Source of the DNA: Escherichia phage CMS-2020a
Sequence record: CP053388.1
DNA length: 64,000 nt
Strand: one strand, 5' to 3'
The notes under the pieces were generated by a model. That model saw only the letters and a program-made list of their open reading frames with translations, did no database searches and had not been told where the DNA came from. Both the position numbers and the translations under genes were made by a program. Numbering within the stretch: position 1 is the first letter of the stretch; every line of letters starts with the position of its first letter. Shown here in pieces: positions 17,762 through 55,847 of this stretch.

Positions 17762-17867
17762 AGATCCCTCTAAAACACACAGAGCGCGTCCATGCGCTCT
17801 AAAACAACTTGTTTACTGCATCTGCTAACCAACTTGTTTTCTGGGGTGTTTAATTAGGTCTGGCATG

Positions 17868-17922
17868 TCTTACGAAGCCTGCTTCCGTATATATTTAATA
17901 AGTTACTTATTATTTATATATA
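17868..17922. promoter_or_regulatory. Imperfect 55-bp palindrome, copy 1 (probable bidirectional terminator or regulator site)
   Basis: cctgcttccgtatatat...atatatacagaagcagg with an AT-rich centre; near-identical copy at 47953-48020. Confidence 0.5.
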
Positions 17923-17956
17923 CAGAAGCAGGTCTTTAAATAAGCTCCCAGACCGA

Positions 17957-18223
17957 TTACATCACCAGTAACTTCGCTTTGGCTCGACCTAAAGTAGTTA
18001 ACCCAAGAGTTCGGCGGTGATAGCGATTGTCACTGCGTTGGCGCGTATGCCCTTTCTCCACCAGCCCCTTTTTTATCAGAGCGCGAATTGAGAACTGGAT
18101 ACTTTGCTTGGTTGTCTTGTACGGCAAAACTTCAAGCAATTCGTCCAGGTCAAGTAGATGACCTCGCTCATAACCGAGATTGAGCGTTTTGATGATGTCC
18201 TTTTGTTTATCGGTTAACGTCAT
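17957..18223 (-). CDS. Small DNA-binding protein (winged-HTH-like), hypothetical
   Basis: 88 aa basic ORF, last gene of the ParB/ATPase operon. Confidence 0.4.
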   Translation of the reverse strand: MTLTDKQKDIIKTLNLGYERGHLLDLDELLEVLPYKTTKQSIQFSIRALIKKGLVEKGHTRQRSDNRYHRRTLGLTTLGRAKAKLLVM

Positions 18224-18232
18224 GGCAAATCC

Positions 18233-19132
18233 TTATGCCGGTAAAGCAATTTCTAACGGTTTATCCAAAGGTTGTTTGTCGAATGCCAGCAGTGGCAGCG
18301 TGTCAGGCAGTCGACGACCAAAGTCAGGGTTTCGATACACACCATACAACGGAGACGTAAAGCTCAGGTTGTGAATGTCCTTGAGCAGCTTCACAATGCT
18401 GGCCTCGTCCACCAGACTGTCGGCAATGTCCTGAATCGTCGTGCCACGATTCCGCCCAGCTTTTGCCAGGGAACTGTTCTTGTGGTAGTCCGCCACCAGA
18501 TCACGCAGTGCACGGCGACGACGAGACTCGCTCATAGCGAACAACTCTTTGACGATCGCCTCGTTATCACCCGGGTCGGAGCGGAAATGGCGCTGGAACA
18601 CACGCAGTGCACTTTCATAGCTCTTCGGTCGCTCAGGGCGGATGAACTTAAACCCTGCTTTCATGGCGAAGGGATTGTATTTGCTCATCGATGACTGGAT
18701 CTCAATGATTGGCCGGTCATGCATCCTGCTAACCAGGTTAATCATTCGATAAGAGACGCCTACGCCACGGTACTGAGTATCCACAACTGAGCGGCTGATC
18801 ACCGCAAAGTTGTTATTCACGTACCGGCCCCAGTACTGGTTAGCCACGGTGGTATTGGTAGTTGGTTTCAACTTAGGAAACATGCGATGGCGAGGTGCCA
18901 GCAGAAGTTTCGGGTAAGCCATAACCACGACGCCCACCAGACGGTCATCCAGTTCGCAGCGATAGTATGTTGGCGCGAAAGGTTTGCCGTCTGTTTTGTA
19001 GTGAAGCGATTTAAGAGCGTGCCAGTCCTCTACAGTTCCCTTTGTGACAGTCATTCGCTCCAGAAAGTCCAGATGACGCGGAAACTCTTCAGGGCGGTAG
19101 CGTTTGATGATGATATCTGCCATCTCGATCAC
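18233..19132 (-). CDS. Hypothetical protein with GNAT-like acetyltransferase motif
   Basis: 299 aa; segment RSVVDTQYRGVGVSYRMINLV resembles GNAT motif A; weak assignment. Confidence 0.35.
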   Translation of the reverse strand: MIEMADIIIKRYRPEEFPRHLDFLERMTVTKGTVEDWHALKSLHYKTDGKPFAPTYYRCELDDRLVGVVVMAYPKLLLAPRHRMFPKLKPTTNTTVANQYWGRYVNNNFAVISRSVVDTQYRGVGVSYRMINLVSRMHDRPIIEIQSSMSKYNPFAMKAGFKFIRPERPKSYESALRVFQRHFRSDPGDNEAIVKELFAMSESRRRRALRDLVADYHKNSSLAKAGRNRGTTIQDIADSLVDEASIVKLLKDIHNLSFTSPLYGVYRNPDFGRRLPDTLPLLAFDKQPLDKPLEIALPA

Positions 19133-19383: not shown

Positions 19384-20014
19384 ATTCCACCTTCACGCGT
19401 TCTTTGTAGTGCTTGGTGATCTGCATATCCGGGCGCAGCGCGTTCTTCAGGTCTTCGTGAGTCGTCGCCACCATTACCGTCGCACCAACCTTTCGAGCGG
19501 CACGCTGGAGGTTAGATGCCACAACCTGAGCGGTTACACGGTCGAGAACAGCGCCGAACTCGTCAGCAGCCCACACTTTAGCGCCTGACTCAATCAGTTT
19601 GGCAATCTTGAGACGATATTTCTGACCGTCTGACATTTCAGAAGGCTTGCGAACAAACAGATATGCATCGTTCAGACCAGCCATAGATAACAACCCAAGC
19701 GCATCACTGGTAGTTTTGCCCAGTTGGTCAATGACGTTAACCTCATTATCGAAGGTAAAATCATCGATGGAGGCCACAGATAGCCCTTCATCCTTCATCT
19801 GGTGTTGCAGCTCGCGCAGCACAACGGATTTGCCGGAACCGGATTGGCCGGTAATGTACACCACATCGCCCTGCTTCACTTCCAGCTCCAGATTGTCGTA
19901 AAGCGTCCACTCTTTTTCGTCCAGGCCAAGCCCGAACGACTCAGCGATTTCCAACGTGCGCGTGGTTTTATTTACGCGTGTCTGAAACGATACGTTGATG
20001 ATGTATTTGCTCAT
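19376..20014 (-). CDS. Minimal ABC-type ATPase
   Basis: Walker A GQSGSGKS, signature-like SDGQKYRLKIA, Walker B VWAADEFG, H-loop ATTHE within 212 aa. Confidence 0.65.
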   Translation of the reverse strand: MSKYIINVSFQTRVNKTTRTLEIAESFGLGLDEKEWTLYDNLELEVKQGDVVYITGQSGSGKSVVLRELQHQMKDEGLSVASIDDFTFDNEVNVIDQLGKTTSDALGLLSMAGLNDAYLFVRKPSEMSDGQKYRLKIAKLIESGAKVWAADEFGAVLDRVTAQVVASNLQRAARKVGATVMVATTHEDLKNALRPDMQITKHYKERVKVEYA

Positions 20015-20679
20015 GCAGCCATCTCCCCGGAAGAGATCTTCTCCGCATATGCCACAAATGCGTCTACCCCGCTTTCTCCCGTCATTTCTTCCATGTGGGC
20101 AAGCAAATCACCAACAACAATGGCAGAGCCAGCAGGGAGCGTTTTAAAGCCCAATACGTCGACAACACGTACTTCTTCCGCTGCAACTTCACGACTGATC
20201 TCGGTGTGTTCATCCTTCTGTCGTTTAGTTTCTTCGCCAAGATCGATAACTAGCGAGTCGGTGTCCATTTCTTCTGTCATACTGCCAACGAGAACATTCA
20301 ACTCACGCTCTTCAAAGCCGAAAACCTCGATATCGTCCAGAACAAGCGACTCAAGCTCTTTCTGTAGCTTAATTGCATCGTAATCAATGCTGGCAAGTCG
20401 GTTATCTTCAAGGCGCTTCGCACGAACCTCGTCATCACTGAGATCATCGCGAACAATAACCGGTACGCGCTCAAGTCCAGCAAAAATTGCAGCCTCACGG
20501 CGGCCGTGGCCAGTAATAATTACGTCGTTCTTATCGACCGTAATTGGCTGGTCAAATCCGCGCTTTTTAATGGCTGCGGCTAGATCTCGGATCTGCTGTT
20601 CATCATGCTTTTTGGCATTCATCTCATAGGGAATAAGATCTGCCGGGTCGCGATATACGATTTCAAACTTTTTGGTCAT
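20011..20679 (-). CDS. ParB-like N-terminal domain protein (paralog 2; start adjusted to Met at 20679)
   Basis: ParB/Srx motif ITGHGRREAA; 1-nt overlap with the upstream ParB-like gene and 4-nt overlap with the ATPase gene. Confidence 0.65.
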   Translation of the reverse strand: MTKKFEIVYRDPADLIPYEMNAKKHDEQQIRDLAAAIKKRGFDQPITVDKNDVIITGHGRREAAIFAGLERVPVIVRDDLSDDEVRAKRLEDNRLASIDYDAIKLQKELESLVLDDIEVFGFEERELNVLVGSMTEEMDTDSLVIDLGEETKRQKDEHTEISREVAAEEVRVVDVLGFKTLPAGSAIVVGDLLAHMEEMTGESGVDAFVAYAEKISSGEMAA

Positions 20680-21377
20680 TACATACGCTCCTTGTAGTAG
20701 TCGACCAGCCATACCAGAGCCTCACCAGCGTTCTCCATTTCATTACCGGTGTTAATAGCCTGCTCTTTGATGATGTTTTTTATGGTTTCTGCAACACGAT
20801 CTGACGCATCGAAAGTTACTTTGAAGCGCATGGTCTGATGTTCCGCACCCACACGTTCGGTTTTCTCTCGTTTGTCGGTATCGACAGGCTCATCACTACC
20901 ACGAGACAACGCCTCCAGTGCTTCAAGGTCGATTGCCGCCTCTTTTGCTAAAACCATCGAGATTTCGTCGTCATACGGGGCGATTTCAGACAGTTGATAG
21001 TCAAGTTCTGACTGAATTTCTTCAATGAAGCGTTGCAATGCGATTTGGTCGTCTTCACCGTATCGCTCGTTGTCCACCAGTGACATCTGTTTAGCTACGA
21101 CATCGCTAATTTTGCCCACAGAAAGCACCGGAACCGTTGAAATTCCTTGCTCAATAGCAGCACGCCAGCGATGTTCGCCGCCGAGGATTTCAAAAAATCC
21201 ATCTTCAAGTTCACGAGCCAAAATTGGCTTAAAAAAGCCCAATTTTTCGATAGAACCTTTCAGTTTTTCAAAATTCTGCGCACCAACCGAATTGGTGTTC
21301 CAGGTATTCGGGCGAAGGTTGGCAACATCAACCTGCAAAATCGTGATTTTTACATCCATTTTATTGCTACAATCCAC
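20679..21377 (-). CDS. ParB-like N-terminal domain protein (paralog 1)
   Basis: Classical ParB box ILGGEHRWRAA; first gene of the operon, divergent from the helicase gene. Confidence 0.7.
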   Translation of the reverse strand: MDCSNKMDVKITILQVDVANLRPNTWNTNSVGAQNFEKLKGSIEKLGFFKPILARELEDGFFEILGGEHRWRAAIEQGISTVPVLSVGKISDVVAKQMSLVDNERYGEDDQIALQRFIEEIQSELDYQLSEIAPYDDEISMVLAKEAAIDLEALEALSRGSDEPVDTDKREKTERVGAEHQTMRFKVTFDASDRVAETIKNIIKEQAINTGNEMENAGEALVWLVDYYKERM

Positions 21378-23003: not shown

Positions 23004-23282
23004 ATGAGTGAAAAGAAAACAACTTACTGTCAGGTAGCATTGTCTGATAAGGCCAATGACAAACTTGGAAAGTTTCAAGTGAAACTAAAAGAAAAAAATA
23101 TCAAAATGTCTAAGGCTGAAGTCATAAATACCATTCTGGAACAATTGACAATGGCCGACTTTGACAAGGTTATATCTTCTGTCGGGGCTTCCGCTAAGAC
23201 TCGTGAGAAAATCATGCGTATCTATGAGAACTCTAATATGACAAAGGAAGATCTCGAAACGCTATTAAGCAGATTAAAATAA
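23004..23282 (+). CDS. Hypothetical protein
   Basis: 92 aa ORF starting 3 nt after the helicase stop. Confidence 0.45.
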   Translation: MSEKKTTYCQVALSDKANDKLGKFQVKLKEKNIKMSKAEVINTILEQLTMADFDKVISSVGASAKTREKIMRIYENSNMTKEDLETLLSRLK

Positions 23283-23777: not shown

Positions 23778-24302
23778 ATGACAACCAAAGATATTACCTA
23801 CGGTATCCAAGCTGAACTCTGGCCGCGAGATTACACTAACGTTGAAAAACTACTGATGTTCTGGCGCAGAGAACAAATTCCTGTAAGGGTCACTCTCGAA
23901 GATGGCCAGGCGTTTTGCATGTACGTTTATGGCCTCATGCCATCTCGTAACAAAGTTGACCTTTGCCCAGCCCCTTTTGACAAAGAAAATCGTATAAGGC
24001 TCCCACTTGAACGCATTAGTACAATTGAATCAGGTGTGGTTGACAGTATCGCTCACGATTTCAAAGGTCGACTAACAGTTCACCCTGATTATGTCGATAA
24101 TCGGCCATCACGCCGCGATTTTTTTGCAATTTGCAACCAAGCCTACAAAGCAAACAAATCTATAAGGGTGTACATGGCGGATGGCCGTGAAATTGAGGGG
24201 GTGTCAGCAGGTGCAGATGCTTGTCAGGTTACACTACGTGTCGAGAACGGTAGAAAAATAGTTGTTTTGTTCGATTGGGTTGAACGAATTTTGCCTTTTT
24301 GA
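23778..24302 (+). CDS. Hypothetical protein (start adjusted to MTTKDITYG)
   Basis: Track ORF 23700-24302 overlaps the lipoprotein gene; in-frame ATG at 23778 follows the lipoprotein stop. Confidence 0.45.
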   Translation: MTTKDITYGIQAELWPRDYTNVEKLLMFWRREQIPVRVTLEDGQAFCMYVYGLMPSRNKVDLCPAPFDKENRIRLPLERISTIESGVVDSIAHDFKGRLTVHPDYVDNRPSRRDFFAICNQAYKANKSIRVYMADGREIEGVSAGADACQVTLRVENGRKIVVLFDWVERILPF

Positions 24303-26053: not shown

Positions 26054-26056
26054 AAT

Positions 26057-26084
26057 CGAGCGCCCACTATGGGCGCTTTTTTCG
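26057..26084 (+). terminator. Rho-independent terminator
   Basis: Hairpin agcgcccactatgggcgct followed by tttttt. Confidence 0.65.
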
Positions 26085-26103
26085 TTTCCAATACACCTAC
26101 CAT

Positions 26104-26129
26104 AACGCGCCAATGATGGCGCGTTTTTA
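26104..26129 (+). terminator. Second stacked rho-independent terminator
   Basis: Hairpin acgcgccaatgatggcgcgt followed by ttttat. Confidence 0.55.
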
Positions 26130-26540
26130 TTGTCTTTAACTCACTCCAACAACATAAAAATAAGCGCCAAAATAACGCCATAGACGCGCTTTTATATCCT
26201 TACCAGTACATGCCCATTACTTAACACATTAACGCGCTTAAAACGCGTTATATTGCGCTATAGAGTATGGTTAATCATTGGCTTTTAGTCTTGCTATGTG
26301 ATCCGCGCTTATTTGTCGGTGCGGATCGGTATTTTGTTTTGTTCTGTATCCGCTCGCGTATTATGTGCGCGTGATTTTTCACTTAATCACACCACTTAAT
26401 CACGTATGTGATTATGCTACGAAAGAAATCTGGATGTCTCAGGTGACGAAAGTCATCATAATTTTCCCCGCTCACCTGTCCGACAACCGCTGGTTGGATT
26501 CCACCAGCTTCCCGATGTTTTTTCTACACAAAGGCGAATG

Positions 26541-26623
26541 CAGCCGTTTCCCGAAAAAATCCTGGCCGTTCCCCCGTCGGCTCATGAATACGTTCCTCGC
26601 CGCTTCTGAAAATTTCCCTGCGG
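26541..26623. repeat. Iteron-like array, type 1, cluster 1
   Basis: agccgtttcccgaaaaa, ggccgttcccccgtcgg, acgttcctcgccgc, cgcttctgaaaatttccctgcgg at about 22 bp spacing. Confidence 0.5.
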
Positions 26624-26669
26624 CAGCTGGTGGCTATAGAGAAAGGGCCGTTTCTGGCCCTCTTCTCAG

Positions 26670-27152
26670 TTACACGCCATCAAGGATGTGGATGCGGTTG
26701 CTTGCGTATACATTCAGCATAAAGTTAGCGCAAAACAGTTTCCATGTATCAACGCCAGCGGTATACGTAATGTTTTTGCATTTAATCGCATTGTTGGCGA
26801 TCCGCATCCCCTGCGATACTGCTTCATCGTCGGAAAATTTGAACGACGATTGAGTTTTAATCCAGACAGAAATCTGCGTAGCGAACTCAATCAGCTTGGA
26901 CTGGCAGAATCGCCCGGAGCGCACCGGAAAGACGAACGTTCCGAATCCAGAATTTACCACATATGCTTTCTCAAATACCCTCGAGTAACGACGATTGCCA
27001 ATGATGTCGCGTGCAATAATGCATTTTTCTTGTGCTGACAGTTCTACCGTCTCATTGTCGCGCCATGCACCAAGTACTCGTTTTTCAATGTCAGAGAACG
27101 TTACAGCGATATTGCCATGTGCGGGTGCGTTTACAGTAGCGATAAAATTCAT
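26670..27152 (-). CDS. Hypothetical protein
   Basis: 160 aa with RBS (aagga) before ATG at 27152 and motif A at 27174-27187; preferred over the overlapping plus-strand ORF. Confidence 0.5.
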   Translation of the reverse strand: MNFIATVNAPAHGNIAVTFSDIEKRVLGAWRDNETVELSAQEKCIIARDIIGNRRYSRVFEKAYVVNSGFGTFVFPVRSGRFCQSKLIEFATQISVWIKTQSSFKFSDDEAVSQGMRIANNAIKCKNITYTAGVDTWKLFCANFMLNVYASNRIHILDGV

Positions 27153-27356
27153 GATTAATTCCTTATCGTAAATAACAAATTGTTTTCTTGTTGGTGTTAA
27201 TTATCGTTGTACGAATAAGGCGTCAAAGTGGAAAGTTGCGGTAGCCGGACGGGAACAGGTGGGTTTGTCGGTTGCCTGGAGGTAAGAGGTTGGTGTTTTT
27301 AGCCTGCGGGAAACAAGATGGTCATTTAAGGCCACCAATGCTGATGGCCTTAATAA

Positions 27357-27877: not shown

Positions 27878-27994
27878 GATGGTTTCCTTATTAAGTTGCT
27901 TCAGTGAAATCATTTTCACAAATCAGATAAGGCAGAAAACAAATTGTTATCGGGCTTAATAAAATGGCGCGGTTTACGCGCCATTTAAAGAGGA

Positions 27995-28390: not shown

Positions 28391-28455
28391 TTCACTCTCC
28401 GTAGTGTTTTGGTTATTTTTATATTCTATGATAGTAAGTATGTACTTACAATACA

Positions 28456-31944: not shown

Positions 31945-31956
31945 TTCAACTACTCC

Positions 31957-44804: not shown

Positions 44805-44943
44805 GTGTTTTTCCTAATGCTTAAACAAGTTGTTTTCTTATTGGCTTTATTGTGATGTGGCATAAAAGGGGAGCAAGCTAAACGTAAAGGTGCAAACTCT
44901 CTATTTCGGTCAACGAAACACAAGGGCCATTTGGCCCTTGTCA

Positions 44944-45527: not shown

Positions 45528-45620
45528 GTGCTTTCCTTTTATTATTTGTCAAAACAAGTTGTTTTCTAATTACATAAATTGCTTACGCAGAGATGGTCAA
45601 TGCATATGCACTAACAGCCG

Positions 45621-45809
45621 TCAGAAATAACCAAGTACCGAACCAACTGGAAAAACAAAAATCCCAACAACACGAGCCAAGGTCATACCAGCCTGAAACT
45701 GGAGATCGCCAGAGCAAACAAGTTTTATAATGTTCGATACCCAACCGGCGGCCATGAGGGCAAGAATTGCCAGCCAAATTTTTCCAAAGTGATTTGAAAA
45801 CCAGTTCAT
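45621..45809 (-). CDS. Small membrane protein (holin-like, tentative)
   Basis: 62 aa with two hydrophobic segments (IWLAILALMAAGWV, VVGIFVFPVGSVLGYF). Confidence 0.4.
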   Translation of the reverse strand: MNWFSNHFGKIWLAILALMAAGWVSNIIKLVCSGDLQFQAGMTLARVVGIFVFPVGSVLGYF

Positions 45810-45818
45810 ACAACCGCC

Positions 45819-46313
45819 TTAGTCACAGCATGATCCTGAGTAACTGGATGAACTTGAGGTATCGCATCCACCGTCATCCCATCCAGAGTGACAGGACGCT
45901 CTACTGGAGTGGTGGTAATTGTCGTCGACGAAGGTGTGGTGGTGGATGAATCCGGCATCAAAAGGCTCTGACCGGCTGGAACGGCTACCGTCGCCAGTGA
46001 AACTATAATGAGAACGTAGGCCATTGGTTTCAGCCTCTTTCTTTGAAAATTTTCCATTCGAACTGTCCTTGTTGTTTTTCTCCTTCACTAAAGGCCGTGC
46101 ATTTTTCGCTTCGCGTGAAGAACCAGAGGCAACAATCGCCCCCACGTTCGCAACAACTGACGCTTGATTATCTAAACGTTCATTCAGCAACCGAACGGTA
46201 GTCTCTAGTTCTTCAAGGCGTGACATAACACGACCGCTAAATAATTCGGCCAAAATTTGACGTAAAGAACGAGGGCGTTTAGTTACAGAAGTGAAATAGG
46301 TTTGACGTGCCAT
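45819..46313 (-). CDS. Hypothetical protein (reading frame uncertain)
   Basis: 164 aa ORF whose C-terminal low-complexity tail overlaps an 83-aa ORF (45806-46057) with an N-terminal hydrophobic anchor in another frame. Confidence 0.35.
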   Translation of the reverse strand: MARQTYFTSVTKRPRSLRQILAELFSGRVMSRLEELETTVRLLNERLDNQASVVANVGAIVASGSSREAKNARPLVKEKNNKDSSNGKFSKKEAETNGLRSHYSFTGDGSRSSRSEPFDAGFIHHHTFVDDNYHHSSRASCHSGWDDGGCDTSSSSSYSGSCCD

Positions 46314-46461
46314 GTGGACTCCATCCAGTGTCAGAAAGAGTTGCGGCTGGCGATTGCCAGCCGCCTTTCTCGTTCCATCCTGGAACTGTGTCTTACCGAC
46401 ACATTGTCATCCTGACGCCGATAAGATACATGATTTAAAATGATAGGTAAACACTTACTTA

Positions 46462-47052
46462 CTATTTATTATAAACAAAACCAATATCTTTCTTGTGAGG
46501 CATATCTGCTGCTGAAAAAGCTGCGATCTTCGCGAGTCGATCACATATTTCATTTTCACGATGCCCGGCGTGACCTTTAACCCACTTCCAGCGAACATTA
46601 TGTCGACTTGCGGCCTCATCCAGACGCTTCCACAGATCAACATTCTTTACCGGTTTTTTGTCAGAAGTCATCCATCCATTGCGTTTCCACCATTTCATCC
46701 ACTGTGTCATGCCGTTTTTCAGATACTGGCTATCAGAGTGCAAAATAACGTTGCATGGATATTTCAAACGCTCCAGCCCGATAAGTGCCCCCATCATCTC
46801 CATGCGGTTATTGGTGGTGCTATGAAAACCATCTGAGAACTCGCGTTCCTCTCCACGATACTGAAGAACGATACCGTAACCGCCCGGGCCACCCGGATTT
46901 TTAAGGCAAGAGCCATCACTGAAGATTTTCACGGTTTTAAGCTGGGGATTGAACTCTACGACAGGCGTTGTGGGATTGGTGCGGGGAGAATTTTTGTTTT
47001 TGGCTTTTTTGCGAGTTTTCGCTTGCGATCGGGCTGGTGTCTTCGTCGTCAT
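46462..47052 (-). CDS. rnhA: Ribonuclease HI (start adjusted to MTTKTPARS)
   Basis: Strong match to E. coli RnhA ([75 protein letters not shown]) with a basic N-terminal extension. Confidence 0.9.
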
Positions 47053-47136
47053 ATAAACTCCTGAATCAAGCGCCGCGCCGATTTTTCCTCGCGCGTGCGC
47101 ACACGCGTGCGTGTTAATAATTATTAAAATAAACAA

Positions 47137-47635
47137 ATTACTTCCCAGAACAGGTTTTTATAAACCTGAACTGAACGAACGAAGTGAGTGAAGTTCACCT
47201 CGAACGAAGTGAGAGGTTGTCTTTTCAGGTAATACTCTCCCAGGGAGGTGAGTATAAAAATCTCTCACCAACCTGGTCGTTTCATAACCTGAAAAGTTAT
47301 GGTCTAAGTCTACTGCCAGCTTAGACTTGGGAAGTTATGGATGACAGCACCCCAGAACCGAGATCTTCCCACACTTTATGAAGGGGAGTACTGGATTCAA
47401 CCTCTCGAAACACCCCAGACTCGACAATCATAAAGTGACCCTTGTCTCTGCTCACTTTGGTTCCCCCTTCCCCGACACCTAAACGGCACCAGTTCTACGC
47501 TGGTAGTGAGCTTTTTTTAAACCTGACGCCAGTGACGCTTACCCCCACCCATCAGGTCGAGTCTCCAGTCTACGACTGGAAACTATCAGATCTTAGCACT
47601 TACAATTCACTTTATGAATAGTTTGTACTTATCTA
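47137..47635. other. About 500-bp non-coding region with several stem-loops and short direct repeats
   Basis: Direct repeat cgaacgaagtgag (x2), hairpin caggtttttataaacctg, long-range inverted repeat cttttcaggt...acctgaaaag; no ORF of 60 aa or more with an RBS. Confidence 0.4.
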
Positions 47636-47866
47636 TCATTGTGATTGATTATTTTCTCTACCATGTAGTTGAACATTCAAGGCAAACACCTCATTGATCA
47701 ACTCACCTAAAAGCTGTTCAACAAGTTCGCGATGCTCGCCAAGATGCAAGCACTTAATTGCCCATTCGTACAAGTTGAAAGCCTGCTCACGATCTTTCAT
47801 CATTTCACGAGCCTGGGCCAGAAAATCGCTCTCTACGAGCGCAACGACATTAGTCGGGTATGACAT
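47636..47866 (-). CDS. Hypothetical protein (start adjusted to MSYPTNVV)
   Basis: RBS AAGGAAA before ATG at 47866. Confidence 0.45.
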   Translation of the reverse strand: MSYPTNVVALVESDFLAQAREMMKDREQAFNLYEWAIKCLHLGEHRELVEQLLGELINEVFALNVQLHGRENNQSQ

Positions 47867-47952
47867 GTTGGTTTCCTTAAAGTGGTTCATAAAATCGATT
47901 TTAAAGCGTCTGGGAAGGGGTTCTAGTGGATTCTGTAGTGATGTTCAGGTCT

Positions 47953-48020
47953 GGAGTCTCTGATACAAAGCTGCCTGCTTCCGTATATTAATAATTAATA
48001 TGTAGTTATTTATATATACA
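47953..48020. promoter_or_regulatory. Imperfect palindrome, copy 2
   Basis: gcctgcttccgtatatt...atatatacagaagcaggc; near-identical arms to the 17868-17922 copy. Confidence 0.5.
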
Positions 48021-48051
48021 GAAGCAGGCTAATTACAGACGCCAGAACAAA

Positions 48052-48645
48052 CTAAGCAGCCTTCTTTGATGGTCTTTTTTTCCTGATCACATTCGCAGGA
48101 TCATACCCTCCCAGACTTTTCATGACGTCCAAAGGGATCTTGCTTATAGAGTGCCCAGCGTCCTGACAGAATCCTCGAAAAACAACGAGCATACTGCCAC
48201 CTGGGTTGATGTTTACTTCTACCTGACCCAGATTTACGTCAGGCTCGACAAACGCTACGCGGCCACCAGACAGAATAATCGTCTCATTCGCACACTCTGT
48301 TGCACGCTCATACCACTTTGTATCTAGGGATTGAGGAATTAGCATCACTGTTGTAACTCCACGAGCCTGCTCACGTATAGCCGCATCAATCCAGGGGGAG
48401 ATTTTGGAGTAGGGTGGATTGAGGAAGGCAATTGTACCTGGCTGTCCCCATTCAGATTTCAAAGCATCACGCTCAACGCCTATGAAATTAGGCAGCTTTG
48501 CATTGTCCTTGTTGCAGGCAACGTCAACATCAAATGTCACTCCAAGATAACGTTGAATGGCAGAAAACAGCCAGTCAGGTGTTCTCCAGAGGTCACGAAG
48601 AGAGTTGTCGCGCTTTCGCTGTTTGATTTTTTCGGCTGCAATCAT
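48052..48645 (-). CDS. dam: Phage-type DNA N6-adenine methyltransferase
   Basis: WRTPDWLF and FLNPPYS motifs in a 197-aa protein typical of small phage Dam-family enzymes; motif B at 48655-48677 upstream. Target sequence not determinable. Confidence 0.8.
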   Translation of the reverse strand: MIAAEKIKQRKRDNSLRDLWRTPDWLFSAIQRYLGVTFDVDVACNKDNAKLPNFIGVERDALKSEWGQPGTIAFLNPPYSKISPWIDAAIREQARGVTTVMLIPQSLDTKWYERATECANETIILSGGRVAFVEPDVNLGQVEVNINPGGSMLVVFRGFCQDAGHSISKIPLDVMKSLGGYDPANVIRKKRPSKKAA

Positions 48646-48708
48646 CTTCTTTCTCGATAGGTAAGTATATACCTATTTTTGCATTTGATTTTATGTCTGG
48701 CAATCAAA

Positions 48709-48757
48709 TAAAACGCGCCAGAAATGCAAACGAGAAGCTCTCTGGCGCGTTTTTGTG
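48709..48757. terminator. Hairpin terminator (bidirectional)
   Basis: aaacgcgccagaa...ctctggcgcgttttt. Confidence 0.5.
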
Positions 48758-48828
48758 GTGCTGGGTATGTGATTGGCTTACCCAGTACTATAAAGCTCTC
48801 TATGGGCTTTATTTTAAGTAGGGGAACG

Positions 48829-49638
48829 TCATCCAATAGTGTACTCCGCGACAAACTTCTTAACGATCGGTGATTCTTCGTTCAATGTTAGATTTCCACC
48901 GTCTCTAACGGCAATTCCTGTCGCTGGAAATACAGCCATCATTTGCCCAGCCTGAGTTGACGCAGTATTAAGCGGATACGGTTTTTCTGGATTGCTCATT
49001 AAAGCAATCTTAATACTATTACTTGTAGCCTTCTTTTCTGTGAGAAGGTGTCTCATGGAAATTACCGTGTAAACACTAATATCTGGACCTCCGCTAAACC
49101 AATTAAGAAGGTTTAATATCTTATCCTTTGCTTTGACAGGCGCGTTATCGTAAGCGTCTAAGAAAATATCTTTTTCTAAGCCCGCTTTATTGAAAAACGA
49201 ATCATCTTTATCACTTAAAGTAAAACGAGGACCTCTTGCAGTACGCGCTTTTTTATTTGTATTGCTATCATTTGACTGTTGAACTTTTAATTCATCATTA
49301 ACCTCAACACACTCTTCAACCTCAATAAATCCCAATTGTTCTGGCTCGTTTTCGGCAGCTTCAACACTTTCAGCGTTAATTACGTTTATAGGCTCATGCG
49401 CTAACTCCAACTCATTTAAAGCAGAGCTGAAATCACCTGCTTTTTCTTCATTGAACAGTTCTTCGGCAACATCATCAGAACTCATGGCTACGCCAGCATC
49501 TAGGCCGAGCAGCAGATCGTCAATATCATCAGTATTTTCAACCTGTGCAGCTTTTTTTACTGGTTCATCAAGTGATTGCAACATGGCTGTCAGCTCGTCC
49601 AGATCAGCATTTGTCATTACATTTTCAACCGAACTCAT
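48829..49638 (-). CDS. Acidic hypothetical protein
   Basis: 269 aa, very acidic N-terminal 120 aa. Confidence 0.5.
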   Translation of the reverse strand: MSSVENVMTNADLDELTAMLQSLDEPVKKAAQVENTDDIDDLLLGLDAGVAMSSDDVAEELFNEEKAGDFSSALNELELAHEPINVINAESVEAAENEPEQLGFIEVEECVEVNDELKVQQSNDSNTNKKARTARGPRFTLSDKDDSFFNKAGLEKDIFLDAYDNAPVKAKDKILNLLNWFSGGPDISVYTVISMRHLLTEKKATSNSIKIALMSNPEKPYPLNTASTQAGQMMAVFPATGIAVRDGGNLTLNEESPIVKKFVAEYTIG

Positions 49639-49796
49639 GTAAGTCTCCTTCTGTTTGGTTACATTTGCGTTTCGATGGCTGCATTTTGACTAAACCTATC
49701 AGGCGGAAAAGTATTAAATACAGGCAGGAAATGATTGAAAGGCGACTGTTCTTTAAAAAAAAGCCTACTTTAAACTTTTTAAAGTAGGCTTTTGTT

Positions 49797-50354
49797 TTAC
49801 ACAATTTCAGAGGGTAATTTAAAAAATCCGTACTTATTACGTGCCTTAAAGAAGCATTGCATCATTAAGTTTGTGTCATATAAGGCACTATGTGCTTTGG
49901 CATGATCGTATATAAAGCCAAGAGAGAAGGCCAACTCTTCAAGGCGGGGACGTTTACCGTCTTCTGTGGCCCACAATCCCGATAACATAGTATCTATAAC
50001 AGGAACTTCTGGCAGTCTTACTCCATACCCTGAAAACTCGTGTCGAATAAATGGTATATCAAATGCTTCGCCGTTATGAGCAACCCACACACTACATGCC
50101 CCCATATAAGCGCCAATTTCGCTGGCATGATTTGACAACAAAGGTTCAGCTGCGAGCTGTTCCAATGAAATGCCATGAACGGCTTGAGCTTTCGGATCTA
50201 TGTTTCTGCGAGGGTTAAAACGCATCTCCAGACTATCAATATGTCTCTGTGTCTCCAGTTCATAGCGGGTAATTGCGATTTCAATAATTTTATGACCAGC
50301 AAGGAAATCCAGTCCCGTAGACTCGATATCGATGCCTGCAACAATCGTTGTCAT
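49797..50354 (-). CDS. DnaQ-like 3'-5' exonuclease (DEDDh family)
   Basis: Exo I GIDIESTGL, Exo II HNGEAFDIPF, Exo III HSALYDTN. Confidence 0.85.
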   Translation of the reverse strand: MTTIVAGIDIESTGLDFLAGHKIIEIAITRYELETQRHIDSLEMRFNPRRNIDPKAQAVHGISLEQLAAEPLLSNHASEIGAYMGACSVWVAHNGEAFDIPFIRHEFSGYGVRLPEVPVIDTMLSGLWATEDGKRPRLEELAFSLGFIYDHAKAHSALYDTNLMMQCFFKARNKYGFFKLPSEIV

Positions 50355-50363
50355 CAGAACTCC

Positions 50364-50783
50364 TTACAACTTCTTAGCGCCCTTAAGTAGTGCGCTACGT
50401 ACAAATTGAGCCGCTTTTTTCAAAGTTTCTTCACTGGTTTCACAGACAATCGGATCTTTCCACTTACCTGACACAGTGTTGAGAATATTGATTTGGTTGC
50501 TATCCAGACAAACAGAGATATAAAGCACCGTGCCACCAGCCAGCATCAAATGCATAGGAAACAGAGGCTTTTTACTGCCTTCACTGAACTGAGACATGGC
50601 GATGTTAATGGCTTCACCCACTTGTGTACCAACAAGCCCCTGCGCAGTTTCGAATATGGCACGAATAGCCAGACGAGCCTCTCGATCGCTCATAAGCGAC
50701 CGGGAATGTTCGTCCGCTACACGAATCAAAGCCTCTGTTGTTTTCCGATCCAGTTCATCTTCAAGCAACATTTCACTAAACAT
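50364..50783 (-). CDS. Hypothetical protein
   Basis: 139 aa ORF. Confidence 0.45.
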   Translation of the reverse strand: MFSEMLLEDELDRKTTEALIRVADEHSRSLMSDREARLAIRAIFETAQGLVGTQVGEAINIAMSQFSEGSKKPLFPMHLMLAGGTVLYISVCLDSNQINILNTVSGKWKDPIVCETSEETLKKAAQFVRSALLKGAKKL

Positions 50784-50844
50784 TTTTTATCCTTAACCCA
50801 TTTTGAGAGTTTTATTGTCGCAATGTCGAAGAGGCGAACAATTT

Positions 50845-51489
50845 CTAATGAACGGTCACTCGGCCACAGAACCGGTTTTCTATCTTTTCTACAGCGTTAT
50901 CTAGCATTCTCATCACTGATCTGGCTCTTGCTTCAACCGTGCGATATCGGTTGGAAACGACGAAGGTTTGCAGATCTCCCCTTTGCGGATGCAGGTGAAT
51001 TTTTGTCAGTTCCCCGCACATCAACGCATCAATACGAGCGACATACAGACGGTCTAATGATGCTCGTTGTGATCGCAAGTAATCTCGCTCTGAGAGAGCG
51101 ACTCCCGGGCGTAAGCCAGCAATGGCGTTAAAGTTTGAAATAGCAGTTTTGTGGCAAAACTTTTCGATATCGAGGGCTAACTCAATACACCGATCTTCAT
51201 TTGTATGGCCGACCAAATCCAACGTGTAGGCCATAACATCAGCAGGTGTGCGATCGATAACAAAGCCTTCAACACCACGCGTAAGTAGCTCTATATGCTT
51301 TGCTATTTCCATTTGAATCTGAAGCCGCTCATATAGAGGCATAGAATCACCTACTCGAACACCGAGGCGGCTCATCAAACTTCCGACACCAGCATCCACG
51401 TAAGGGATTCCGTAATGTTTGTCGATATATTTAGCCAGGGTTGTTTTCCCACTGCCCTGAGCACCAGTGATCCCAATCCGGTAATCCAT
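50845..51489 (-). CDS. P-loop nucleotide kinase, putative dNMP kinase
   Basis: Walker A GAQGSGKTT at the N-terminus; placed in the nucleotide-metabolism cluster; substrate inferred. Confidence 0.55.
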   Translation of the reverse strand: MDYRIGITGAQGSGKTTLAKYIDKHYGIPYVDAGVGSLMSRLGVRVGDSMPLYERLQIQMEIAKHIELLTRGVEGFVIDRTPADVMAYTLDLVGHTNEDRCIELALDIEKFCHKTAISNFNAIAGLRPGVALSERDYLRSQRASLDRLYVARIDALMCGELTKIHLHPQRGDLQTFVVSNRYRTVEARARSVMRMLDNAVEKIENRFCGRVTVH

Positions 51490-51965
51490 TACGACCTTCT
51501 GTATACGATCTGCGAAAAGCCAGGCTCTTCCTCGCTGGCTCGTTGGGTATAAGCTGTTTCAACAGGCACAAAGCCTAAATTACGCATCATGCTTGCCGGG
51601 AAGAATGCATCGGCGTTTGGCACATCAACGCCGATGTGGGAGAGCCAAATCTCTTCAACATGCGGCATGAATAGCGAGTAAATTTGTTCCCCGCCAATCA
51701 CCCACACAGGCTCTGGTAATCGCAACACATCATCCACACCAGCAGGGTAGAATCCATTTGGTACAAAGCCATGAGAGCGCGTCAAAACGAGGTTATGACG
51801 CTCTGGAAGAGGGCGTTTGAGACTTTCCATCGTTTTACGCCCCATAACGACAGTGGCGTTTTTGGTGAGTCTCTTAAATAGCTTCAGATCGGTAGAACAA
51901 CGCCAGGGCAGTTCGTTCGCTATGCCGATCTCATAGTTACGGCCAACAGCAGCTATCATCTTCAT
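51489..51965 (-). CDS. folA: Dihydrofolate reductase
   Basis: MIAAVGRNYEIG...LPW, VVMGRKTMESL, VWVIGGEQIY motifs; 158 aa. Confidence 0.9.
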   Translation of the reverse strand: MKMIAAVGRNYEIGIANELPWRCSTDLKLFKRLTKNATVVMGRKTMESLKRPLPERHNLVLTRSHGFVPNGFYPAGVDDVLRLPEPVWVIGGEQIYSLFMPHVEEIWLSHIGVDVPNADAFFPASMMRNLGFVPVETAYTQRASEEEPGFSQIVYRRS

Positions 51966-52375
51966 TTGCTCACCTCATAGATGACCGGTCTATGATGAGA
52001 GTCAGCTAAAGCGGCACGGAGTCGAGGATCGTGCACCAGCGCAGCGATAAGCAGATCGCCTTTATGCTCCGCTAATGTGCGCTTAATATGCTTCTCATAA
52101 CTGGTGCCATTCGGTACTAGATGAAGCCAGTCATAATCAACACCAAAATCTTTCAGCCATCGTTTAGTGGGCGCTTCAAGAGTTTCAGAGCGGCTACTGA
52201 TAAGCACCACTTCAGCCCCTGAGCGAGCAAAACCACGCAACATACGGCTGGTGGGGAAAATGAGTTCATCACCGGCAATGAATTGGCCTGCATCCGAGTC
52301 AGATACAGATTTACGATGGCTGGTATTTGCCAGCACACCTTCAATTTCGCATAAGACATACATACCTCTTGCCAT
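51962..52375 (-). CDS. Hypothetical protein (start adjusted to MARGMYVL)
   Basis: Internal ATG at 52375 lies just after the thymidylate synthase stop; the track ORF to 52471 would overlap by about 95 nt. Confidence 0.4.
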   Translation of the reverse strand: MARGMYVLCEIEGVLANTSHRKSVSDSDAGQFIAGDELIFPTSRMLRGFARSGAEVVLISSRSETLEAPTKRWLKDFGVDYDWLHLVPNGTSYEKHIKRTLAEHKGDLLIAALVHDPRLRAALADSHHRPVIYEVSK

Positions 52376-52376
52376 A

Positions 52377-53480
52377 TCACACCGCCACTGGAACCTTGAT
52401 CCACGGTAGAGGGGCATAGCCAAGAATAAGAATCTCGTCCCATTTGAAATCATCCAGCTCAGACCATTCATTAGGGAATATAACGACCGGATCTGAATGC
52501 TCTGGAGCCTGTCGTTGCATTAGCTCACACACACCTTCCATGTGGTTGTTGTACAAATGCACGTCAAAGCCAAAATGCACAAATGCACCGGCCATGTGAC
52601 CCGTAATCTTCGCGAGAAAATGAGTGAGAATGCCATAGCCAGCAATATTGAATGGCATACCAACAAAAGTGTCTACGCTACGCTGTACGAGGCAGGAGTT
52701 GAGGATGCGTTTGGGGATTCCAAGTGCATCCAGTTCAGTTTCAGTAACACTGCCGTCCATCTCCAGATCGTATAGCATCTTGGTGTAGATAGACTCATAA
52801 CCGAGGCGACTGTGTTGAAGACCAATGTCAGTTGCCATCGTTAAACGGGTTTCAAAATCCAGTTCACGACTCCACAAAGAGAAGACAAAGTGGCAAGGTG
52901 GCAGTTTCATATCCTCAAGCTCGCCTACGTTCCATGCGTTAAGCATGATGCGACGATCGGTAGGGTTCGTGCGCAGTGTATCGACAATACGCTGTAGCTG
53001 ATCGATTTCACGGGACAGCACTACGCGATCTTCACTGATACCCAGGTATCCCTCGACTTTGTACCCGCGTTCACGGAAAGTAGCGATCTTGCTCAGATAT
53101 TCACTATGGCTCACGATGCGGGTATCTTCCCATCGACGCCACTGCTTACCGTAAACCGGCCCCAAATCGCCATTCTCATCGGCCCATGCATCCCAAATCT
53201 TAACGCCGTTATCCTTGAGAAATTGGATGTTGCCCGTGCCTTTCAGATACCACTCAAGTTCGACAAGCAGTGGCTTAAGATTTACCGCCTTTCCAGAAAT
53301 AAGCGGCACAGTCCCACCAGTAAGCATGTAGTAAGAGGGAACGTAGCAGGTGCTTAAAGTACCAGTGCCTGTGCGATCATCAGCCTGCACGCCGCTTTTA
53401 AGCACCGTCTCAATAACTTTTGCATACGATGCGTTTGTTACCTGACCGTTCGTATGCTCACGATTCAAAAGGAGTGACAC
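52377..53480 (-). CDS. thyA: Thymidylate synthase with two insertions relative to E. coli ThyA (start adjusted to GTG at 53480)
   Basis: DRTGTGTLS, DLGPVYGKQWR, catalytic LPPCH, PFNIAGYGILTHFLA; SD GAGG before GTG 53480; motif B at 53493-53512 lies upstream of this start. Confidence 0.85.
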   Translation of the reverse strand: MSLLLNREHTNGQVTNASYAKVIETVLKSGVQADDRTGTGTLSTCYVPSYYMLTGGTVPLISGKAVNLKPLLVELEWYLKGTGNIQFLKDNGVKIWDAWADENGDLGPVYGKQWRRWEDTRIVSHSEYLSKIATFRERGYKVEGYLGISEDRVVLSREIDQLQRIVDTLRTNPTDRRIMLNAWNVGELEDMKLPPCHFVFSLWSRELDFETRLTMATDIGLQHSRLGYESIYTKMLYDLEMDGSVTETELDALGIPKRILNSCLVQRSVDTFVGMPFNIAGYGILTHFLAKITGHMAGAFVHFGFDVHLYNNHMEGVCELMQRQAPEHSDPVVIFPNEWSELDDFKWDEILILGYAPLPWIKVPVAV

Positions 53481-53651
53481 AAAAACCTCACAAAGATAAG
53501 TAACCACTTATTCATTGCGTGAGTTTACATTTATTGAGAGAACAAGACCAGACAGATAAAAAAATGGTGGCCATAGGCCACCAAAAACGAATAGTTGTTT
53601 CAGAAATTTAACGCGCCAGCGCAATATACACAGATAGATAACTACCTACAA

Positions 53652-54521
53652 TTATTTTTTGATCATTCCGTACATTGCTGAGGCTTTAGCTTGCTCAACA
53701 AAGGAGGATAAATCGACATCACTATAGGTTGGAGACTTCAGAATCTTTCCATCGGAAATTCGAAAACCGATCATCTTATCGGTGCCATCAGCATGGCGAA
53801 ATCCCAGGTCAGAAGAGTCGTATTTGCAGTTGGCCACAGCATGGCGACGCTCTTCGGCATCTGCAGGCCATAATTTTGTCATGTTGGACCGATGAATTTC
53901 GCCAACCAGCTCGACGACATTGATACCGAGAAAATCAGCCAGTCGATAAGTCATCATGCACGCCACATAGATTTTGTTCATTACACGGCGCAGTTCCTGA
54001 ATCAGCTCAGAATCCTTAACAGTCTTCTTCTCAAGTTTATCTGCCAGCTCTTCGAGCATACATGACGCCTCACGAGCTTCCTGAAATGGCATTGCCATAT
54101 CATCGAAAACAGTGTTACCAGGCACAAAAATTGTCTGCATAAAGCGATCAATGCTCTGTTCCTGCGTGTAATAAGTCATGCCGGTAGAAATACCACCTTT
54201 GATGGCGACCATCGTACCAACACCAACGTATAAAAAGTCGGCCATTGCATCCAGCAGTTGCTCAATATCCCCATTCATTGCGGCTGGAATACCTTCCACT
54301 ACAGCTTCTTCATGAATCAGGCTTGCACGGAGACGAAGCAGCTCTGGTGTCGGCATAACGCGTCTCGGATGCTGGAAGAGTTCATGAAACTGATCGACCA
54401 TCTTGTAAATACTTTCAGTGGCTACACCATGGCCTTCATGCAACTCATATGGTTCTGGCTTAAATCCAATGAGTCGATCGGTGGCAAGTTTCAGGTGGTC
54501 AGTCAGTTTGGTAAAGTTCAT
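53652..54521 (-). CDS. MazG-like nucleoside triphosphate pyrophosphohydrolase (tentative)
   Basis: 289 aa with EExxE...ExxD-like segments (LIHEEAVVE...DIEQLLDAMADFLYV), apparently duplicated; weak. Confidence 0.4.
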   Translation of the reverse strand: MNFTKLTDHLKLATDRLIGFKPEPYELHEGHGVATESIYKMVDQFHELFQHPRRVMPTPELLRLRASLIHEEAVVEGIPAAMNGDIEQLLDAMADFLYVGVGTMVAIKGGISTGMTYYTQEQSIDRFMQTIFVPGNTVFDDMAMPFQEAREASCMLEELADKLEKKTVKDSELIQELRRVMNKIYVACMMTYRLADFLGINVVELVGEIHRSNMTKLWPADAEERRHAVANCKYDSSDLGFRHADGTDKMIGFRISDGKILKSPTYSDVDLSSFVEQAKASAMYGMIKK

Positions 54522-54598
54522 GCTAGTTTTGCTCCTTCTTAATTCTTGTGATCCATTGTGGCCCAGCGTTGCCAGGCCACATAATGCTTTGTATCGGT

Positions 54599-55741
54599 TT
54601 ACAGGTCTGCAAACTGGCTTAGAGAAGCCTTATCCACGGTAGAATCGATCTGACCTACCAGATATGTGCTTTGCTCTGCCTCTTGTGGCGCAATTTGCAG
54701 TGTGTCGGTTAACAACCACTTGTTCATCCAGACCAGCGGATCAGTGGTAACTTCTGGAAATAAAGCCTTCAGGCCAAGACGATTCATAGCCAGATTGGTG
54801 CGGTATTTTACATAGGTTTTGAGAATATCCGCGTTTAAACCAATCATCGAACCGTCTTTGAAGAGATAGTCTGCCCAGTTCATTTCTTGTTCGGCGACTG
54901 ATTTCATGGTGTCGTAAATGACGTTTTCTTCATCAGCAGCAATCTCTTTCCACAATAAACCTTCGCGACCGGTACGCATGAAGCGGATCATGCGTTCAGT
55001 TCCTTCGCAATGCAGAGCTTCATCACGGGCAATAAAGCGCATAATTTTGGTGTTACCCTCAAGCAACTTCCGTTCACCAAAGGCAAACGTACATGCAAAA
55101 CTTACGTAGAAACGGATCGCCTCAAGCGCATTAATGGACACCAACGTGCGGAAAAGCTGACGATGCAAAGGGTATGGCTCCCAGCCATATTCATTTACGT
55201 ACAGACGCTCAAATTCCTTCTCACCTAACGACTGGCGCTCGCAGGTCATCCCATAAAGCCTGTCATATTCAGCAGAGATACTGATCGCTCGGTTGATGAT
55301 TTCTTCATCCGTAACAATACCGTCAAAAACAATGCTCGGATCGTCCACCATGCCACGAATAATGTGGGTGTAGCTGCGGCTATGGATAGTCTCAGAGAAA
55401 GACCACGTTTCAACCCACGTTTCCAGTTCAGGAATAGAGATAAGCGGCAACAGCGTTGCATTTGGACTACGTCCCTGAACTGAATCGAGTAACGTTTGAT
55501 AACGGAGATTGCTCAGAAAAATGTGACGTTCGTGGTCCCGCAGCTTCGTGTTGAAGTCGATACGATCGCTCGAAATATCAACTTCTTCCGGCCGCCAGAA
55601 GAAAGACAATTGACGTTCAATCAACTTTTCAAAATCACGGTATTTTTGCTGATCGTAACGTGCCACGTTGACAGATTGTCCGAGGAACATAGGCTCTTTG
55701 GTTGCATCATTAGCACCCAAACGGAACGTTGAATATGACAT
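54599..55741 (-). CDS. nrdB: Ribonucleotide reductase class Ia beta subunit
   Basis: Collinear with E. coli NrdB ([35 protein letters not shown]-terminal SQF.DL); motif A at 55773-55787. Confidence 0.95.
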
Positions 55742-55847
55742 GTGTTTTTCCTTTTTCTTTTTTGGTGTGTTTAAACAAGTTGTTATCTTATGTGTTTAAA
55801 CAAGGCTTACAAATCAAAGAGAAGGTGGGGATATCCCCCACCATATG

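Follow-up and report, generated by a model that had tools for sequence, protein, structure and literature searches.

What kind of control element recurs, as a short palindrome, in front of the genes of a phage-plasmid, and what would read it? This question is raised by motif A, an inverted repeat found repeatedly between positions 17,801 and 55,787 of a 64,000-nt stretch of Escherichia phage CMS-2020a (CP053388.1; in the following, this whole stretch is called the window). We established the existence of the motif, its enrichment, symmetry and conservation footprint, its fixed register to a −10-like element and its restriction to one family of elements. Judged from its sequence properties, motif A probably serves as an operator in double-stranded DNA, to which a symmetric dimer of a regulator encoded by the element itself would bind, and we infer that this binding represses.

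A recurrent palindrome and its setting

The window belongs to an SSU5/Cyrano-type phage-plasmid of the Salmonella phage SSU5 family, with 97–99% identity to Cyrano. A megablast search with window positions 40000–60000 returned Escherichia phage Cyrano (pLF82, OV696614.1) with 98.4% identity and 100% query coverage, two further E. coli phage-plasmids at 97%, and Salmonella phage SSU5 together with Klebsiella phage-plasmids at about 77–78%. When the Cyrano genes were mapped, the window proved to correspond to Cyrano in reverse complement and to cover the stretch that extends from the tail genes and terS across the “accessory/early” half of that genome. Nearly all its genes are 97–100% identical to Cyrano genes and lie on the minus strand, so that every “upstream” must be taken on the reverse complement.

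Searching the window for AACAAGTTGTTTTC with up to 2 mismatches gave 19 strand-hits, corresponding to 13 loci, compared to 1.09 ± 0.94 (maximum 3) in dinucleotide shuffles. The core AACAANTTGTT with up to 1 mismatch matched 15 times against 4.27 expected, a number reached in 0 of 100 shuffles. The 12 copies listed in the initial annotation were all present, with coordinates off by 1–3 nt at most, and the enrichment statistics that it had proposed as a check turned out in favor of the motif. All 12 sites are intergenic, and intergenic DNA makes up 13.1% of the annotated stretch, which corresponds to a chance of about 0.131^10 to 0.131^12. The thirteenth locus (23015–23028, plus strand) is only a half-site within the first codons of an open reading frame (ORF) and was left out of the count. 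This perfect half-site, AAGAAAACAAC, corresponds to codons 3–7 (E K K T T) of a ribbon-helix-helix-like gene (23004–23282) and is probably coincidental.

Aligned in gene orientation, the copies share a full unit of 17 bp, the palindrome GAAAACAAnTTGTTTTC, centered at positions 17808, 17833, 27179, 27943, 28846, 29330, 31964, 32015, 40290, 44829, 45558 and 55779. The inverted-repeat core described initially is thus confirmed, and the unit is longer than it had been written. Positions ±1 to ±5 each carry close to 2 bits of information; the base at the center is unconstrained. Two types of sites can be recognized. Forward-type sites read (A/T)AAGAAAACAAnTTGTTT(A/T)N, and their right half often merges into the Shine-Dalgarno (SD) sequence (TTGTTTAAGGAG). 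Inverted-type sites read TAAACAAnTTGTTTTCT(G/A)CC and often lie directly 3′ of the GC hairpin that ends the preceding gene.

Eight copies in the window have their center 18–47 nt before the start codon. The inverted copies at 27943, 32015 and 40290 lie upstream of a −10 element, 71–81 nt from an SD-preceded start, and for copy 17833, which is the upstream site of a tandem, the distance to the terS start is 72 nt. The motif had been described as always located just upstream of a ribosome-binding site and start codon; on the reverse complement this applies to the eight copies, but not to the inverted ones and 17833. Its occasional tandem arrangement was seen again at 17808/17833 and 31964/32015, pairs with a spacing of 25 and 51 bp, respectively. 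The proposed association mostly with small early genes and nrdB is too narrow, as motif A also precedes terS, the head of the structural operon, and, elsewhere in this type of replicon, parA, a DnaB-like helicase gene and cobT.

Promoter register, conservation and expression

The position of the motif relative to promoters was analyzed with a custom register test in three genomes, Cyrano, SSU5 and Klebsiella phage pJN2-26, using a −10-like hexamer with A at position 2 and T at position 6. Most often this hexamer reads GATAAT, TATTAT or GAAAAT, with TGn in front of it. It started 24–26 nt upstream of the center of the forward site in 7 of 13 cases in Cyrano, 8 of 13 in SSU5 and 7 of 10 in pJN2-26 (22/36 in total), compared to a background of 3–5% (binomial P 1e-6 to 1e-9). 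When the TG extension was included, the numbers were 5/13, 6/13 and 6/10 (17/36 in total) against a background of 0.2–0.3% (P ≤ 1e-10). At inverted sites, the hexamer follows exactly 26 nt downstream of the center, and in both types the better half-site (AGAAAACAA) faces it. With the hexamer placed at −12 to −7, forward centers fall at about +13 and inverted centers at about −38; about 75% of the sites are centered at about +13. A conserved CCA at the expected transcription start position, about 7 nt after the −10, is suggestive only.

Paired sites exactly 51 bp apart are found in the window (31964/32015), in Cyrano (93120/93171), in SSU5 (85608/85659, 88325/88376 and 93668/93719) and in pJN2-26 (24765/24816 and 28545/28596). 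The distance from the site to the start codon is variable, ranging from 18 to 49 nt. Because the register to the −10 is fixed while this distance varies, the motif is locked to the promoter and not to the translation start, which bears out the promoter-proximal position noted initially. A site downstream of the −10 or over the −35 therefore behaves as an operator and not as a promoter recognition element. We infer that the −10-like elements are working sigma-70 promoters. The individual sites in the window and the elements belonging to them are as follows.

17825–17841, minus strand: motif A, forward (GAAAACAAGTTGGTTAG), first of the tandem in the terS leader, at about +13 from the −10-like CCTAAT at 17853–17858; orthologues present in Cyrano, SSU5 and pJN2-26
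17800–17816, minus strand: motif A (GTAAACAAGTTGTTTTA), second of the tandem, shifted 25 bp downstream, abutting the terminator-like hairpin before terS
17780–17801, minus strand: terminator-like GC hairpin (8 bp, 5 GC) plus TGTGTTTTAG, which separate the tandem sites from the terS start codon (17761); stem kept in SSU5, pJN2-26 and a Nissabacter-type relative
27171–27187, minus strand: motif A, forward, 27 nt before gene 26670–27152; −10 GATAAT at 27200–27205
27935–27951, minus strand: motif A, inverted (GATAACAATTTGTTTTC), at about −38 from the extended −10 TGTGAAAAT (hexamer 27912–27917), placed after the GC hairpin terminating the upstream gene and 30 nt from an annotated GTG without SD
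28838–28854, minus strand: motif A, forward, 18 nt before gene 28517–28828; extended −10 TGGTATTAT (hexamer 28867–28872)
29322–29338, minus strand: motif A, forward (GAAAACAACATGTTTAA); extended −10 TGCGATAAT (hexamer 29350–29355)
31956–31972, minus strand: motif A, forward, proximal member of the 51-bp pair, 20 nt before gene 31645–31944
31984–31989, minus strand: −10 hexamer GATAAT with TG extension, between the sites centered at 32015 and 31964, the clearest example of the cassette
32007–32023, minus strand: motif A, inverted (TAAAACAATTTGTTTTC), distal member of the pair, at about −38
40282–40298, minus strand: motif A, inverted (TTAAATAAATTGTTTTC), directly after the hairpin GGCCATAAGTTGTGGCC, at about −38 from TGTGAAAAT (hexamer 40259–40264)
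44821–44837, minus strand: motif A, forward, 25 nt before gene 44235–44804
45550–45566, minus strand: motif A, forward, 31 nt before the TciA-like gene 45102–45527
55771–55787, minus strand: motif A, forward (GATAACAACTTGTTTAA), located 38 nt before the nrdB start codon in the spacer that separates this gene from nrdA; retained in SSU5 and pJN2-26 although the downstream spacer diverged

In the mechanism that we propose, the 17-bp dyad GAAAACAA-n-TTGTTTTC would be bound by a dimer of a phage-plasmid regulator. The complete cassette would consist of an optional inverted site (about −38), GCCTTTT, the extended −10 (TGnGATAAT), AACACCA with the probable start, a site at about +13, the SD sequence and ATG. 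A protein at +13 would block the binding or the escape of RNA polymerase, in a position like that of lac O1. At −38, a second dimer would mask the −35 region, perhaps in cooperation with the first. As 51 bp correspond to about five helical turns, two dimers would sit on the same face of the DNA, flanking the −10, which suggests such cooperation. The approximately 20 promoters per genome would form one regulon, with nrdB, parA, cobT, the helicase gene and the terS leader as members along with many small genes; a different palindrome (motif B, below) would control a second regulon. In the terS leader, sites at +13 and +38 followed by the terminator-like hairpin suggest a further layer of control over the structural operon; at the hairpin, the late operon might be subject to attenuation or antitermination.

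With a matrix derived from the window sites, the complete Cyrano genome was found to contain about 20 sites and that of SSU5 about 22, at orthologous promoters. These include two sites before terS (25 bp apart) and sites at parA, the DnaB-like helicase gene, cobT, nrdB and a run of small genes. The same sites exist in the Klebsiella relative pJN2-26, and the motif is unchanged in Nissabacter-type and Enterobacter-host elements, in which the products of the small genes are 33–62% identical to those of the window. Across 16 orthologous sites of Cyrano and SSU5, the ungapped identity is 0.93 and 0.88 in the half-sites and 0.25 at the central base, which is the random level; it is 0.69 in the −10 region and 0.5–0.6 further out. 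Conserved half-sites with a free center are the pattern expected of a dimer contacting two half-sites and leaving the center uncontacted. As the most conserved part of the cassette (0.9 versus 0.69 at the −10), the palindrome is therefore under selection of its own.

This difference also speaks against the possibility that motif A is an RNA or DNA hairpin (a 5′ stabilizer, processing site or terminator tail) or a functionless relic of duplicated cassettes. The perfect copy folds at −5.4 kcal/mol, the inverted copies directly after GC hairpins could serve as a U-rich tail, and the whole cassette of about 60 bp is alike between genes. Yet a typical forward copy folds at −0.7 kcal/mol, and in six native leaders the motif hairpin lies outside the minimum-energy structure (z-scores −0.85 to +1.0). 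Among 46 distinct 17-mers from five genomes or loci, 92 deviations breaking complementarity stand against 4 compensatory double changes, which places the sequence and not the ability to pair under selection. An Rfam search of the window gave 0 matches. A structured RNA hairpin is ruled out because folding is weak and no better than that of shuffles, covariation is absent and Rfam gave no match; taken together, hairpin and relic are very improbable explanations.

The distribution of the motif is narrow. An exact search of IMG/VR for AAGAAAACAANTTGTTTA yielded, among the matches listed (at least 120 stretches), 103 that are SSU5-like at the nucleotide level; the remaining 17 among these are single matches in unrelated contigs, at about chance level. 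With a 35-nt probe, which detects about 18 or more matched bases, a total of 5426 complete E. coli genomes yielded 908 plasmid-borne places (on plasmids typically of 100–114 kb) and 12 chromosomal ones. Any such place occurred in 259 of these genomes, with a median of 4 places each, which gives a rough prevalence of SSU5-type phage-plasmids of about 4.8% of complete E. coli genomes. Motif A is found almost only in the SSU5-like family. A host transcription factor or nucleoid protein recruited by the element would agree with a motif that is identical across elements from Escherichia, Salmonella, Klebsiella and Nissabacter-type hosts, but 12 chromosomal versus 908 plasmid places make a host regulon with this operator unlikely. 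To our knowledge, no known E. coli operator consensus matches; that of KdgR (GAAACAnTGTTTC) comes nearest, with a different spacing. We regard a host factor as hardly credible.

Expression was assessed with the published normalized counts for each Cyrano gene in LF82 lysogens, which have a background median of 9.8; in the same work, Cyrano was induced 39-fold by ciprofloxacin (PMC9928086). For 14 of 15 site-bearing promoters, the first downstream gene is at background in these counts, at 5.7–25.5 (terS 7.1; helicase 21; cobT 7.8; CYRAN_58 5.7; nrdB 12.9; CYRAN_85 7.0; CYRAN_87 7.1; CYRAN_93 6.3; CYRAN_101 7.5; CYRAN_105 12.8; CYRAN_106 12.2; CYRAN_108 5.7; CYRAN_110 6.7; CYRAN_111 25.5). The exception is parA with 49.8. 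Motif A is absent from the strongly lysogeny-expressed units, namely the toxin-antitoxin pairs, repA, CYRAN_43, CYRAN_45, CYRAN_98/99 and CYRAN_117/118. The silence of the motif A genes fits, if weakly, repression in the plasmid state.

The same silence would equally fit the lack of an activator, and motif A could then serve positive control, with a factor that appears after induction switching on a temporal promoter class, for instance by class II-type activation from −38. Class II activators sit near −38, and the MarR-fold protein considered below is poorly expressed in lysogens. However, about three quarters of the sites lie downstream of the −10, where repression is expected. Moreover, a near-consensus extended −10 normally needs no activator and should be active alone, so that silence in the lysogen argues for repression rather than for a missing activator. 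Positive control thus appears decidedly unlikely, and repression from an operator is the reading we retain.

Candidate regulators and a second palindrome

If motif A is an operator, a protein encoded by the element should bind it. Two proteins encoded in the window were considered in particular.

17957–18223, minus strand: MarR-fold protein, candidate binder at the DNA level; 88 aa, homologue of CYRAN_123, predicted MarR/PadR-type winged helix
23778–24302, plus strand: FljA-family protein, candidate binder at the RNA level; Pfam Flag1_repress (PF03614), E 2.5e-84

The MarR-fold protein is the leading, if tentative, candidate for a DNA-level binder. About 120 bp separate the end of its gene from the tandem sites that follow in the terS leader, and its recognition helix is invariant. 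Pfam returned nothing for this protein and NCBIfam only matches below the cut-off, and no homologue below 75% identity was found. Co-variation of motif and regulator is uninformative: in all relatives found, both the motif and the MarR-fold protein are invariant.

Other DNA-binding proteins were considered as well. The ribbon-helix-helix-like protein encoded at 23004–23282 (CYRAN_117), whose gene is highly expressed in lysogens, was rejected and is an unlikely binder: two of its three predicted DNA-facing positions (Y/H/S/F, A/Q/K) vary while the motif is identical. Two ParB-N proteins (20011–21359) are at the detection floor in lysogens. CYRAN_45, an Xre-type helix-turn-helix (HTH) protein annotated as “putative repressor”, is the master repressor in the view of the Cyrano authors (PMC9928086). 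It was rejected as the binder of motif A, as its own promoter region is without this motif and has another palindrome.

This second palindrome, TAGGTAAGTACTTACCTA (core GGTAAG-nn-CTTACC; palindrome GGTAAGnnCTTACC), is probably the motif B of the initial annotation. Allowing up to 3 mismatches, we found 8 copies in the window versus 0 expected, among them 58210–58227, 41475–41492, 48658–48675, 62894–62911, 46444–46461, 15858–15875 and approximately 28420–28445. They lie within the core promoters of nrdA, an sbcD-like gene, a dam-like methylase gene, thyX and several small genes. The divergent spacer between CYRAN_45 and CYRAN_46 contains a perfect GGTAAGTGCTTACC (Cyrano 42606–42619) and extra GGTAAG/CTTACC half-sites; motif A is absent from this spacer, with a best matrix score of 3.8. 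Motif B is therefore most likely the operator of CYRAN_45, a CI-like repressor, and a different protein would be required for motif A. CYRAN_45 is absent from SSU5 and present beside the integrase in all lysogenic relatives. As SSU5 is described as virulent, this absence proves nothing.

The probable assignment of motif B to CYRAN_45 supports the two classes of promoter or operator that had been postulated at the outset, insofar as there are two recurrent operator-like palindromes; the notion of a promoter class does not extend to motif A, which is not a promoter recognition element. Motif A and motif B genes are both silent in LF82 lysogens, in data that cover the lysogenic state.

The FljA-family protein leads to a different explanation, in which motif A is an operator at the RNA level. 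The 5′ untranslated region (UTR) would be read by this protein, ribosomes would be blocked and lytic mRNAs would be destabilized in the lysogen. Salmonella FljA reportedly acts on fliC mRNA in this manner. The protein is encoded by every relative examined, including the Klebsiella elements. Klebsiella hosts are non-flagellate and have no flagellin, so repression of fliC cannot be the task of the FljA-like protein there. Its predicted fold consists of two Sm/Hfq-like barrels, with no HTH. The gene is expressed in lysogens (log2 7–8 versus a floor of 2.3) and belongs to a block transcribed opposite to the lytic genes. Forward sites would lie at about +5 to +21 of the predicted transcript, merging into the SD sequence, and the motif would read as an A-rich followed by a U-rich tract.

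Yet an exact dyad with a free center has no rationale in the recognition of single-stranded RNA. The inverted sites lie upstream of the −10, outside the transcript to be controlled and with reversed asymmetry, and the spacing is fixed to the −10 and not to the SD sequence or AUG. The fliC 5′ UTR of Salmonella and Citrobacter scored −3.0 with the motif matrix, equaled by 34% of random windows, and the E. coli fliC leader matched motif A no better. A link to the FljA target had been considered via CAAGTTGT, supposed to lie in the Salmonella fliC leader, but this leader fails the motif matrix and gives no support. We therefore consider an RNA-level operator unlikely. In a variant, the FljA-family protein with its two Sm domains would recognize the palindrome in about 20 gene leaders, possibly in the transcription bubble or as single-stranded DNA, and this appears quite unlikely. 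If it were true, the original role of the FljA family would be to silence the lytic genes of phage-plasmids globally at the post-transcriptional level, and the flagellar phase-variation repressor of Salmonella would have been domesticated from it.

Several observations weigh against a DNA operator for an element-encoded repressor. A generic sigma-70 scan (at least 4/6 matches in the −35 hexamer) calls none of these promoters, and it found no recognizable −35 hexamer 16–18 bp upstream at these sites; extended −10 promoters can function without a −35 hexamer. About 40% of the forward sites are without a clear −10 at the standard offset, for example those of parA, nrdB and the TciA-like gene. Although it bears a site, the parA operon is expressed (50–89), and the silence of the other genes carries little weight, as silence in lysogens is shared by most genes of the element. 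The MarR-fold candidate is itself at background in an overnight lysogen culture (7.8) and only about 5-fold above its operon neighbors in other conditions in lysogens. The sole protein of the family that is both annotated as a repressor and conserved throughout is an RNA binder of the Sm fold and not a DNA binder.

Further observations concern the genes around the sites. In the Cyrano annotation, CYRAN_105 starts with an ATG within the palindrome (window 29327–29329, minus strand) and CYRAN_108 with a GTG within the −10 element (window 27911–27913, minus strand). Both starts are probably mis-called, because they have no SD sequence and SD-preceded ATGs follow 30 and 45 nt downstream, respectively. 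A weaker copy of the inverted type lies at about 24249–24273 (score 15.4; Cyrano 100809–100833, score 18.9), inside the 3′ end of the FljA-like gene and in antisense direction. Its Cyrano counterpart would face the oppositely oriented lipoprotein gene CYRAN_115, which is lacking in the window. The FljA-like gene has 77.5% DNA identity to that of Cyrano, compared to 97–99% for the neighboring genes.

Compared to Cyrano, the window is also without CYRAN_116 and CYRAN_110, the latter of which has its own motif A promoter. Parts of CYRAN_93/94/97 are replaced, and the differing regions are 26054–26669, 35825–36619 and 38464–40209. The region of small genes looks like an array of exchangeable promoter-gene-terminator cassettes. 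Two long, unusual spacers lie in 47053–47635, with direct repeats CACTTCGTTCG and a GC-rich palindrome ACGCACGCGTGTGCGCACGCGCG; searches of these spacers for tRNA and Rfam matches found none. The GC-rich structured stretch precedes an ORF of 44 codons (47321–47455), which is 98% conserved in SSU5 and expressed in the lysogen at 12 times background.

Significance and comparison with known systems

Most likely, motif A is an ordinary kind of control element, a repressor operator within a promoter cassette, in a clinically common family whose regulation is uncharted. The searchable literature, in which one 2026 preprint on an SSU5-like element was not covered, contained no account of motif A or of gene regulation in the SSU5 family. 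Phage-plasmids of the SSU5/pHCM2 type are common in Enterobacteriaceae. Carriers of CTX-M-15 belong to the SSU5-like family, and to judge from the name of the phage vB_Kpn_1825-KPC53, the family also has a KPC carrier. A defined operator with a fixed promoter register provides a map of about 20 transcription units and a handle on their regulator. The two palindromes suggest a model of two regulons, in which lytic, replication and partition genes would be kept quiet in the plasmid state and released after DNA damage.

Several known repeated elements were compared by eye. The NrdR box, parS or other centromere sites, RepA iterons and a pac site were all rejected, since the consensus differs and the approximately 20 copies are promoter-locked, with none at repA.

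The closest parallels are regulons of other plasmid-borne elements. Phage P1 is likewise a plasmid-prophage, in which about 20 copies of one operator for C1 are dispersed over separate transcription units that include replication and late-function genes, as here, and both elements have more than one immunity or regulatory circuit. In contrast, the P1 operators are asymmetric 17-bp sequences bound by monomeric C1, while motif A is a perfect dyad, and no C1 homologue is annotated in Cyrano or SSU5. The KorA/KorB system of RK2/RP4 also has odd-length palindromic operators (OA and OB) at many promoters and two coexisting classes, and class I sites of KorB at about −39/−40 in RK2 resemble the inverted site at −38. 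Their sequences are, however, unrelated, and most sites here are at +13. KorB of RK2 is a ParB homologue expressed in the plasmid state, whereas the two ParB-N proteins are at the detection floor in the lysogen. The system described here does not belong to the P1 C1 or RK2 Kor families, given the lack of an annotated C1 and the silence of its ParB-type proteins in the plasmid state.

The operators of MarR-family proteins such as OhrR and MarR resemble motif A in being palindromes of 16–20 bp that are bound by a winged-helix dimer and overlap the −10/+1 region, and a MarR-fold protein is encoded by the element. Unlike these regulators, the candidate here is a minimal winged helix of 88 aa without the MarR dimerization and ligand domain, and its fold is a prediction. 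For the location of the forward sites at about +13, lac O1, centered at +11, offers a close precedent. The FljA-fliC system of Salmonella is similar in that an FljA-family protein is encoded and the forward sites lie just upstream of the SD sequence in the predicted leader. It differs in that motif A is a DNA dyad occurring in both orientations, to which the fliC leader shows no match, and the targets would be phage genes and not flagellin.

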